Part shown: in pieces, positions 8,828-10,729 of the stretch | Numbering within the stretch: the first letter of the stretch is position 1 | Layout of the letters: every line of letters starts with the position of its first letter | From: Thermoplasmata archaeon | Lineage (GTDB): Archaea; Thermoplasmatota; Thermoplasmata; RBG-16-68-12; JAFNFQ01 | Assembly: GCA_041489255.1 (NCBI GenBank) | Contig: JBGPQV010000002.1 | Location: 150,447-174,446 of the forward strand | Length of the DNA: 24,000 nucleotides | Reading direction: 5' to 3' | Notes under the pieces: generated by a model | Database searches by the model: none | Told to the model about the DNA's origin: nothing | The model's input: only the letters and a program-made list of their open reading frames with translations | Made by a program: the position numbers and the translations under genes

Positions 8828-8912
8828 ACCACGCGACCGTGTCCGGAGGGAGAACGGCCTGCCACTCTCGGACCGTTTCTGGGCATCTACCTGCCAAGTC
8901 CCCGTCGAAAAT

Positions 8913-8920
8913 GCTTATAC
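8913..8920 (+). promoter_or_regulatory. TATA-like box for tRNA-Gln (and possibly glnS)
   Basis: GAAAATGCTTATAC is centred about 28 nt upstream of the tRNA 5' end at 8944. Confidence 0.45.
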
Positions 8921-8943
8921 GGAGACGCGGCTTGACGGAACGT

Positions 8944-9014
8944 AGCCCCGTGGTGTAATGGCAGCATAAGAGGCTCTGGACCTCTTGGCATCGGTTCGAA
9001 TCCGGTCGGGGCTG
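8944..9014 (+). tRNA. tRNA-Gln (anticodon CUG)
   Basis: Manual cloverleaf fold. Acceptor is AGCCCCG/CGGGGCT (A1:U72). D stem is GTGT/GCAT with loop AATGGCA. Anticodon stem is AGAGG/CCTCT with loop CTCTGGA (anticodon CTG). T arm is ATCGG-TTCGAAT-CCGGT. The discriminator is G and no CCA is encoded. Confidence 0.9.
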
Positions 9015-9043
9015 CCTGTCCATCCGAGATTCGGTGAAGAAGA

Positions 9044-10729
9044 ATGCATTCCGAGGAGGCGCCCCGAGACTTCATCAGGAAGATCATCGACGAGCACAAC
9101 AGGAGCGGACGCTTCAACGGCCGTGTGCACACCCGCTTCCCGCCCGAGCCCAACGGCTACCTTCACATAGGCCACGCCAAGGCGATCTGTCTCAACTACG
9201 GCATCGCCAAAGAGTACGGCGGGCTCTTCAACCTCAGATTCGACGACACGAACCCCCTCAAGGAGGAGGAAGACTACGTCCACGCGCAAATTGAGGACGT
9301 CAAGTGGCTAGGGGCGGACTGGGGCGACAGGCTCTACTTCGCGTCCAACTACTTCGAGCAGATGTACGACTATGCAGTGCAGCTGGTCAAGGCGGGAAGG
9401 GCGTACGTGGATGACCTTTCGGCGGATGAGATACACGACTACCGCGGCACGCTCACGACGCCGGGGCGGGAGAGTCCCCATCGGAATCGCTCGATCGAAG
9501 AGAACCTAGACCTCTTCAAGCGCATGCGCGAAGGCGAGTTCTCCGACGGCGAGAGAGTCCTCCGCGCGAAGATAGACATGGCCCACCCGAACCTGAACAT
9601 GCGCGACCCGGTCATGTACAGGATACTTCACGCAAAGCATCACAACACAGGGGACGCATGGTGCATCTACCCCACGTACGACTGGGCGCATGGTCTTGAG
9701 GATTCGATAGAGAAGATAACGCACTCGATCTGCTCGTTGGAGTTCGAGGACCATCGACTCCTGTACGACTGGTTCCTTGACCAGCTTGGAGTCTATCATC
9801 CCCAGCAGATCGAGTTCGCCCGCCTCAACATGAGCTACACGGTGATGAGCAAGAGGTTGCTTGTGAAGATGGTCAAAGAAGGAGTCGTGGATGGCTGGGA
9901 CGACCCGCGACTATTGACCGTGAGAGGGCTGAGACGACGCGGATACCCGCCAACCGCCATCCGCACGTTCCTCGAAAGGGTCGGGGTGGCCAAAGTCAAC
10001 AGCGTCGTGGAGATCGAGTTTCTGGAACACTGCCTCAGAGAGGAACTGAACAAGACCGCGCCCCGCTACATGGGCGTTCTCAGACCACTCCGCGTCGTGA
10101 TAGAGAACTGCCCGGAGGGCAAGACGGAGGAGTTCGATGCGGTGAACAACCCTGAGGACCCGGCTGCGGGGAAGAGAAAAGTGCCTTTCTCCCGCATCAT
10201 ATACATCGAGCAGGAGGATTTCATGGAGAACCCTCCGTCAAAGTACTTCAGGCTATCCCCGGGAAGGGAGGTCCGCCTGCGCTACGCCTATTTCATCACC
10301 TGCAAAGAGGCGGTGAAGGAGAACGGGAAAGTCACGGAACTAAGGTGCACGGTTGATCCGGAAACGCGCGGCGGAAATGCGCCGGATGGAAGGAAGGTGA
10401 AATCCACCCTGCACTGGGTTTCTGCCGCCCACGCAATCGACGCGGAAGTACGCCTGTACGACAAGCTGTTCACCGTCCCGGATCCACTCGCTCAGGAAGG
10501 CAAGGAATTCAAGGACCTTATCAACCCGAAATCGAAGGACGTTATTGCAGCCTGCAAGGCCGAGCCGGCCGTGCGGAGCCTCAAGCCATACGACCGGTTC
10601 CAGTTCGAGCGGATGGGATACTTCTGCGTGGACCCGGACACCACGAGCGACAGACTGGTGCTGAACAGGACCGCCACCCTGCGGGACTCCTGGACCAAGA
10701 TTCGAGAAGGCGGGGAAGTTACGAAGTGA
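9044..10729 (+). CDS. glnS: Glutamine--tRNA ligase (bacterial-type GlnRS)
   Basis: From memory it matches E. coli GlnRS along its full length: [45 protein letters not shown] (HIGH), [28 protein letters not shown] (KMSKS), [24 protein letters not shown] and [12 protein letters not shown]. It lacks the N-terminal extension and the HLGN/LSKS variants I recall for archaeal GluRS. GGTGA lies about 10 nt upstream of the ATG. Confidence 0.93.

Follow-up and report, generated by a model that had tools for sequence, protein, structure and literature searches.

Do archaea glutaminylate tRNA-Gln directly? Reviews of 2016–2022 state that archaea are without glutaminyl-tRNA synthetase (GlnRS), just as the preliminary description of the locus studied here had stated. 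Some attribute this absence to the incompatibility of archaeal tRNA-Gln (A73, A1:U72) with bacterial and eukaryotic GlnRS, an orthogonality barrier ascribed, as a review summarises it, to Tumbula et al. (2000). The question is raised by a tRNA-Gln(CUG)–glnS module in a Thermoplasmata archaeon (assembly GCA_041489255.1, contig JBGPQV010000002.1, positions 150,447–174,446 of the forward strand). This whole 24,000-nt stretch is hereafter called the window. We consider it about 85% probable that the module comprises a bacterial-type GlnRS gene acquired once, an archaeal tRNA gene remodelled beside it, and a shared tRNA–glnS transcript. The parts of the module are as follows.

8906–8919, forward strand: putative archaeal promoter, with a B recognition element (BRE)-like CGAAAA at 8906–8911 and a TATA-like CTTATA at 8914–8919; promoter function is predicted
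8944–9014, forward strand: tRNA-Gln(CUG), 71 nt from A1 to discriminator G73 (ARAGORN 8944–9016; Rfam RF00005)
9015–9043, forward strand: 29-nt spacer, the presumed glnS 5′ leader, read from the sequence
9044–10729, forward strand: glnS, encoding a 561-amino-acid (aa) bacterial-type GlnRS (TIGR00440, Pfam and PDB matches)

The glnS product and its archaeal host

The 561-aa open reading frame (ORF) matched the NCBIfam glnS model TIGR00440 from end to end (692.4 bits, cutoff 425.8, E = 4e-208, profile positions 1–524 of 524). It fell below the cutoffs of both the archaeal glutamyl-tRNA synthetase (GluRS) model TIGR00463 (350.8 bits, cutoff 401.75) and the archaeal/eukaryotic-type GluRS model NF003169 (309.3 bits, cutoff 516). 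Its layout is a catalytic Rossmann domain (PF00749, class I E/Q catalytic domain) with two beta-barrel anticodon-binding domains (PF03950, PF20974), and the HIGH and VMSKR motifs lie at residues 41–44 and 267–271. The best PDB matches were bacterial GlnRS, from Pseudomonas aeruginosa (5bnz, 688 bits, E = 1e-205) and Escherichia coli (654 bits), with lower scores for human GlnRS (465 bits) and archaeal GluRS (3aii, only 178 bits). Judged by its sequence, the enzyme is a true bacterial-type GlnRS and not a GluRS, as had been proposed from the two motifs and from N- and C-terminal blocks like those of E. coli GlnRS.

Functional residues were read from an alignment of 127 members of the archaeal clade described below and 153 bacterial sequences, mapped to E. 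coli GlnRS numbering. Counts of invariance leave aside one N-terminally truncated clade sequence that lacks the first columns, including that of Arg30. The equivalents of Arg30, Tyr211, Cys229 and Gln255, which we take from E. coli structures to be the glutamine-selecting residues, are present in the window enzyme and invariant in the clade. The HIGH histidines and Ser269-Lys270 of VMSKR are likewise invariant, with Met268 kept in 126/127. The same was observed for Arg341, Arg402, Arg410 and Gln517, whilst Arg412 is Arg in 126/127; from the E. coli complex, these five presumably read the anticodon (C/U34-U35-G36). The enzyme thus looks fully functional, and there is strong support for its being kept under strong purifying selection. 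Differences from the bacterial enzymes were also apparent. Arg130 of E. coli is retained in 127/153 bacterial sequences; most members of the archaeal clade have Ser there, and the window enzyme has His. The clade also carries signature substitutions at E. coli positions 290, 318, 325, 326 and 510, three of which adjoin Glu323, presumably the contact to G10. The Arg130 change and the signature positions may serve as leads for tRNA co-adaptation, rather than as demonstrations of it.

The top-scoring NCBIfam model was NF011291, a GlnRS/YqeY fusion (822 bits, cutoff 681). Its match was limited to profile positions 12–560 of 769, the protein ends at residue 561, and it has no YqeY/GatB-like C-terminal domain. 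Close bacterial relatives are likewise without a YqeY domain (median length 565 aa). The Prokaryotic Genome Annotation Pipeline (PGAP) names 557–565-aa members of the clade (e.g. UCD92679.1, UCG68870.1, UCD13015.1) 'glutamine--tRNA ligase/YqeY domain fusion protein'. Because the model match stops short and the domain is missing, this label is a misnomer for the archaeal-clade proteins.

The host was identified from the genes around the module, beginning with its nearest conserved neighbour upstream.

6368–7978, forward strand: class I (archaeal-type) lysyl-tRNA synthetase (LysRS; TIGR00467 lysS_arch, 306 bits against a cutoff of 148)

This LysRS gene is a conserved syntenic neighbour that lies outside the transcription unit of the module. 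The order dihydroorotate dehydrogenase (DHODH), DUF885, phosphoribosyltransferase (PRT)-like, class I LysRS, tRNA-Gln, GlnRS (and PurP) is repeated in independent assemblies. LysRS–tRNA–GlnRS was found in 10 other archaeal loci from separate assemblies (comparison loci carry L numbers); their LysRS is 30–54% identical to that of the window in nine cases and 94% in the close relative L169. Genes of archaeal type stand to either side of glnS on one and the same contig. In the window these include lysS_arch and the genes for a GfcR-like PRT protein and a protein of the aIF-2B family; syntenic or related contigs add PurP, DTD2, RNA polymerase subunit L, an archaeal threonyl-tRNA synthetase editing domain, LonB, Sec61-beta and MCM. 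Both tRNA genes of the window (tRNA-Gln and tRNA-Leu) are preceded by a GCTT(T)ATA box at −29/−30, with an A-rich BRE-like element before the box. The closest species-representative genomes are titled Thermoplasmata or Methanomassiliicoccales archaeon, and NCBI relatives also include Thermoplasmatales. Members of the same clade in NCBI include three genome-sized single contigs of 1.9–4.2 Mb (CP070767.1, CP070672.1 and CP070798.1), and a protein identical to the window GlnRS is also encoded on a 279-kb JGI contig. Synteny, promoters, tRNAs and neighbouring genes all mark the contig as archaeal, and its host as an archaeon.

The glnS gene itself has the codon usage of its surroundings, with a GC content at third codon positions (GC3) of 0.79 versus 0.74–0.83 in neighbouring genes and a codon frequency correlation with them of r = 0.85. 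Together with the LysRS–tRNA–GlnRS order recurring in 10 loci elsewhere, this strongly supports glnS as an ameliorated resident gene rather than the product of a chimeric assembly, which had been argued earlier from its codons. The synteny, kept at LysRS identities of 30–54%, and the native codon usage both point to the age and vertical inheritance of glnS.

The archaeal GlnRS clade and a probable exchange of glnS alleles

We further investigated how widely this enzyme occurs. All of the best 120 matches among 5.8 billion proteins (71–100% identity) grouped with archaeal loci; 14 carried archaeal NCBI names and one (P0058) was named 'Petrotogales bacterium', probably a binning error. In a neighbour-joining (NJ) tree of 280 sequences (127 from the clade, 152 bacterial from at least 15 phyla, and E. 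coli GlnRS), at least 127 protein clusters formed one archaeal clade, whose bipartition was recovered in 100/100 bootstraps. When rooted on E. coli, the clade was nested in bacterial GlnRS, and its sister group of 17 sequences included all named Phycisphaerae, Pirellulales and Scalinduaceae loci. Divergence inside the clade reached ~0.40 substitutions per site. A placement within archaeal GluRS, which the preliminary description had named as fatal to its claim, is contrary to the profile scores. The simplest reading is that glnS passed once, long ago, from a bacterium into the ancestor of a large Thermoplasmata clade and then descended vertically; the donor was possibly a planctomycete. A scan of metagenome contigs gave mainly bacterial loci, which served chiefly as a control set, and only L085, L086 and L088 from archaea. 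A search of viral contigs gave two distant matches (59–60% identity) and no sign of a viral vector for the archaeal clade.

The window glnS is therefore not a singular case; it belongs to a large group that has already been sequenced and automatically annotated. Archaeal GlnRS sequences are already public and machine-annotated as GlnRS, though not discussed, and we found no description of an archaeal GlnRS in open-access papers or preprints. The earlier view of the gene as unusual stands with respect to the reviews, which deny archaeal GlnRS, and fails with respect to this lineage, in which the enzyme is common.

Window positions 8957–11656 were compared with L169 and L085. Between the window and L169, the flanks share 92–94% nucleotide identity and glnS 71–86%, the drop starting just after the tRNA. 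Between the window and L085 the pattern is reversed, with glnS at 86% and the flanks at 79%, and the alignment begins exactly at the promoter (8907). This incongruence suggests that related archaea have exchanged glnS alleles by recombination, the breakpoint lying where the tRNA meets glnS, and would make the tRNA locus a hot spot for variable DNA.

Two further elements were seen at the edges of the module. Just downstream of glnS lies an orphan 202-aa ORF (10834–11442, forward strand) with no family match, a GC content of 0.50, a GC3 of 0.61 (neighbours ~0.80) and a codon usage correlation of r = 0.47. L169 has different, unalignable sequence at this position and L085 has nothing, and the ORF was probably gained recently, at a hot spot. 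In the interval from LysRS to the tRNA-Gln promoter (8169–8827, forward strand), an 83-aa ORF and a PIN-domain VapC-like toxin form a VapBC-like pair, which is also found in L169 and is missing at that position in L082, L165, L167 and L168.

The linked tRNA-Gln gene and a predicted co-transcript

ARAGORN and the Rfam tRNA model RF00005 (8944–9014, 59.7 bits, gathering score 29) both recovered the complete tRNA-Gln(CUG) that had been described ahead of glnS. The distance from its discriminator to the ATG is 29 nt, and not the 30 nt first given. The tRNA has A1:U72, G2:C71, C3:G70, G10:U25, an anticodon loop CU-CUG-GA, a 7-nt D-loop, a 4-nt variable loop and no encoded CCA, and its sequence is identical in L085 and L169. 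Over 12 distinct homologues the cloverleaf is held, with 98.8% of cells paired and five pairs showing compensatory changes; the acceptor and D stems are invariant, and N73 is the sole variable position of the acceptor end. The identity set of E. coli GlnRS consists of G73, U1:A72, G2:C71, G3:C70, the 10–25 pair, C/U34, U35 and G36. Present in the window tRNA are G73, G2:C71, G10 (as G10:U25) and C34-U35-G36; it departs from the set at A1:U72, a weak pair in reversed orientation, and at C3:G70, and relatives carry A73. The combination of A1:U72 with G73 and G10 had been reported previously and all three were read here, but G73 is not general in the clade, whose tRNAs have either A73 or G73.

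Linkage of this kind was the most conspicuous outcome of the comparison of loci: 15/18 distinct archaeal loci, compared to 5/152 bacterial loci, have a tRNA-Gln gene at most 250 nt from glnS, and 17/18 archaeal loci have one within 2.2 kb. The exceptions to the closer spacing are L083 (622 nt away), L172 (2.1 kb, with restriction-modification-type genes between tRNA-Gln and glnS) and L001, a short contig with none. In L083, L084, L170 and L171 the linkage is kept despite wholly different protein-coding neighbours. That glnS has stayed physically tied to archaeal-type tRNA-Gln genes is strongly supported. Among the bacterial loci, tRNA-Gln occurs within 6 kb of glnS in 11/152 and is always CUG (L017, L057, L152, L160, L161 and others); in L017, L057 and L152 it lies 109–121 nt upstream of glnS on the same strand. 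By our judgement, this proximity is above what chance would give, considering that a genome has one or two copies of the gene.

All linked tRNAs are archaeal-type, with an identical acceptor stem AGCCCCG/CGGGGCU (A1:U72, G2:C71, C3:G70) and no encoded CCA. Two body types were distinguished. The 71-nt type (7-nt D-loop, 4-nt variable loop, anticodon CUG) lies directly upstream of glnS; three loci (L082, L165, L167) also have a twin of it downstream, with anticodon UUG. The 73-nt type has a 9-nt D-loop, is usually downstream of glnS and presumably resembles the canonical archaeal tRNA-Gln. With the 73-nt archaeal form the 71-nt type shares 73% identity, compared to 51% with bacterial tRNA-Gln; it is therefore, with strong support, best regarded as a derived native paralogue and not as a co-transferred bacterial tRNA.

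In the literature, A73 is given both for archaeal tRNA-Gln and for its inferred archaeal ancestor, and G73 counts among the determinants recognised by E. coli GlnRS. Here, G73 occurs in 6/15 copies of the 71-nt type, in three copies of intermediate length (L084, L088) and in 0/6 of the 73-nt type. The lineages with G73 are scattered over the GlnRS tree (the group of the window, L085, L169 and L166, then L170, L083, L084 and L088). The switch from A73 to G73 in several sublineages, including that of the window, appears to be a lineage-specific derived state, and its scatter would fit a linked tRNA that has adapted more than once to the transferred enzyme. A73 in many lineages shows either that the enzyme tolerates A73 or that those tRNAs are served by another route.

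Three atypical tRNA-Gln genes were found near glnS. L171 has a tRNA-Gln(CUG) at 5775–5875 (forward strand), 88 nt downstream of glnS, with no ARAGORN call and a 27-nt D-loop insertion that is probably a non-canonical archaeal intron and, as such, a further sign of an archaeal host. L170 has a tRNA-Gln-like gene at 5756–5828 (forward strand), also downstream of glnS, whose anticodon loop UCCUGCA contains C33 and C37 where tRNAs have the near-universal U33 and, at 37, usually a purine; the gene may be degenerate or specialised. L084 has, between glnS and an intact tRNA-Gln(UUG), a degenerate copy resembling the latter (~11745–11820, forward strand) in which G2 is mismatched with A71; this copy may be a remnant of duplication or integration.

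The putative promoter is centred ~27 nt upstream of the tRNA 5′ end, and A-rich/TATA-like motifs occur at a similar distance upstream of the glnS-linked tRNA in related loci. CTTATA is the only TATA-like box found at the module, as claimed at the outset, with none such upstream of the ATG. The 29-nt spacer contains a Shine-Dalgarno motif (GGTGA, 9033–9037) 6 nt before the ATG, and on reading its sequence neither a TATA box nor an oligo-T run was seen in it. GGTGA is kept 6–9 nt before the start codon in L085, L169, L002, L086, L165, L082 and L171. The spacer shrinks to 6 nt in L166 and 4 nt in L167. These observations make co-transcription of the tRNA and glnS likely in the window. One archaeal promoter, ahead of the tRNA, would drive a tRNA–mRNA co-transcript; once RNase P and RNase Z had cut out the tRNA, the glnS mRNA would keep a 29-nt leader with the Shine-Dalgarno motif. 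The same cleavage in L166 and L167 would give a nearly leaderless glnS mRNA. Such a transcript could couple synthesis of the enzyme to that of its tRNA substrate. Folding of the tRNA with the leader gave nothing beyond the tRNA and was no better than chance (z = 0.05); a leader riboswitch or attenuator is not proposed.

Alternative explanations, wider context and known systems

GlnRS would charge glutamine directly onto tRNA-Gln, the direct pathway thought to be missing in archaea, and direct glutaminylation of an A1:U72/C3:G70 tRNA by the window enzyme is predicted. An archaeal GlnRS would vanish altogether if the contig were bacterial, chimeric or mis-binned. The majority of clade members are metagenome-assembled genome (MAG) contigs, and P0058 carries its bacterial name; set against one gene order in at least 10 independent assemblies, the three genome-sized, archaeal-named single contigs, archaeal genes on both flanks, archaeal promoters and tRNAs, and native codon usage, this is so improbable that we dismissed it. 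The early description had itself listed a bacterial or chimeric contig as the way in which it could fail, and its archaeal-looking genome has held up on these same grounds. The tRNA could also have arrived with glnS in a bacterial tRNA-Gln(CUG)–glnS cassette, its acceptor end becoming archaeal later. Such cassettes exist (L017, L057, L152, among the 11/152 within 6 kb), the derived tRNA shares D-loop and variable-loop lengths with several bacterial tRNA-Gln genes, and outside the acceptor stem its bacterial identity is 56%, versus 50% for the 73-nt type. Over the whole molecule, however, the derived tRNA is 73% identical to the archaeal 73-nt type and at most 66% to any bacterial tRNA-Gln, it has the archaeal acceptor stem unchanged and no encoded CCA, and 0/17 sister-group bacterial loci have an adjacent tRNA-Gln. 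On sequence identity we judged co-transfer quite unlikely.

Improbable to a lesser degree is that the adjacency is a historical scar, left when a mobile element carrying glnS integrated at or between tRNA-Gln genes. The module is bounded by the VapBC-like pair upstream and the low-GC orphan ORF downstream, restriction-modification-type genes were inserted between tRNA and glnS in L172, and near-identical tRNA copies stand on both sides of glnS in L082, L165 and L167. A scar does not sit well with a neighbour that is specifically the cognate tRNA and has evolved toward bacterial GlnRS identity features, with linkage that persists in L083, L084, L170 and L171 amid entirely different protein neighbours, or with 4–30-nt spacers too short for a separate promoter. 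A somewhat unlikely alternative concerns the division of labour rather than the origin of the module: GlnRS would serve only the linked 71-nt tRNA, and non-discriminating GluRS (ND-GluRS) with the GatDE amidotransferase the 73-nt A73 tRNA. L166, L168, L086 and L170 have tRNA-Gln(CUG) genes with two distinct bodies around glnS, G73 is confined to the derived type whilst the 73-nt type is A73 in 6/6 copies, and A1:U72, which a review gives as a GatDE determinant, is invariant. In L082, L165 and L167, by contrast, the CUG and UUG isoacceptors flanking glnS are both of the derived type, suggesting that GlnRS may serve all Gln decoding there, and A1:U72 could equally persist because GlnRS needs a weak first pair. 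A tblastn search with GatE of Pyrococcus abyssi (1zq1_C) and Methanothermobacter thermautotrophicus (2d6f_C) gave no match in the 172 loci (2.1 Mb), a result that is uninformative at ~20 kb per genome.

Several observations weigh against an acquired GlnRS with a remodelled, co-transcribed tRNA. The linked tRNA has A1:U72 and C3:G70, whereas the determinants of E. coli GlnRS are U1:A72 and G3:C70. Integration is frequent at tRNA genes and the DNA on either side of the module is variable, so that the linkage could partly reflect the route of arrival and not selection. Nor does co-transcription hold for the module in general: the 65–72-nt spacers of L082, L165, L088 and L170 hold a TATA-like box of their own, L088 has a T5 run immediately after the tRNA, and independent glnS transcription may have evolved or been retained in these four loci. 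Finally, the tree is NJ only, built from sequences picked by similarity to the query and free of eukaryotic GlnRS and GluRS outgroups, which makes the donor tentative; as the scores are far higher to bacterial than to eukaryotic GlnRS, a bacterial origin is still a reasonable reading.

Beyond an acquired GlnRS, we tentatively extend the account, at rather less than even odds, to a deep Thermoplasmata clade that dropped GatDE transamidation, believed to be universal among archaea, and uses the acquired enzyme with a remodelled tRNA paralogue, both made from one precursor and carried in a recombining cassette. The same tentative account would have the short D-loop and variable loop, together with repeated independent changes of A73 to G73, overcome the orthogonality barrier. 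If GatDE has been lost in these genomes, an ancient indirect pathway can be displaced.

The window and its relatives form a natural counter-example to the statement that there is no archaeal GlnRS, and the explanation by incompatibility becomes testable. Within its known family the enzyme is ordinary; what is new is its occurrence in a domain believed to be without GlnRS, where it is fixed in a large clade. This clade supplies a GlnRS family that, to judge from its sequences, works in archaeal cells, along with two tRNA-Gln body types and close lineages differing by A73 versus G73, and is thus a natural test system for synthetase–tRNA co-adaptation after horizontal transfer. For annotation, neither GatDE-based assumptions on archaeal Gln decoding nor the PGAP fusion label fit these genomes.

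Other features were seen in the window and in one relative. ARAGORN called a tRNA-Leu(UAG) at 13575–13660 (reverse strand) that was not among the Rfam matches at the gathering threshold; its upstream region shares the TATA motif with tRNA-Gln. A 271-aa protein with a Ras/Roc-type small GTPase domain, a group of interest in archaea, is encoded at 12755–13570 (forward strand) and conserved in L169. The stretch 21000–23000 is low in GC (0.52 versus ~0.60) and possibly foreign DNA; a 593-aa ORF at 21077–22858 (reverse strand) has no Pfam or NCBIfam match, a GC3 of 0.63 and atypical codon usage. In L082, an 89-nt 'tRNA-Stop(tta)' called by ARAGORN (3150–3238, reverse strand) reads by eye as an anticodon loop CU-GUU-AA followed by a ~14-nt insertion, and is most likely an intron-containing tRNA-Asn(GUU) and not a suppressor.

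Among known systems, the window enzyme is alike end to end, and in the same domain order, to bacterial GlnRS (E. coli GlnS 1GTR/1QTQ; P. aeruginosa 5BNZ; TIGR00440), sharing HIGH, VMSKR and all of the Gln-binding and anticodon-reading residues. It differs in its archaeal host, its tRNA with A1:U72 and C3:G70, its tRNA-linked gene, His in place of E. coli Arg130 and the clade substitutions at 290, 318, 325, 326 and 510. The GlnRS/YqeY fusions (NF011291) give the top model score, yet the window protein is without the YqeY domain. The archaeal route through ND-GluRS and GatDE has the same product, Gln-tRNA-Gln, and the same substrate family, archaeal tRNA-Gln with A1:U72, but its chemistry and proteins are entirely different, and the window protein is under the GluRS cutoffs. 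The gene pair pylT–pylS, a linked tRNA and synthetase, is similar in that a synthetase gene lies beside its cognate tRNA gene and the pair is inherited, and potentially transferred, together. The pair in the window, unlike pylT–pylS, serves a canonical amino acid, uses a remodelled tRNA of the host instead of a new one, and would compete with or replace the indirect pathway.

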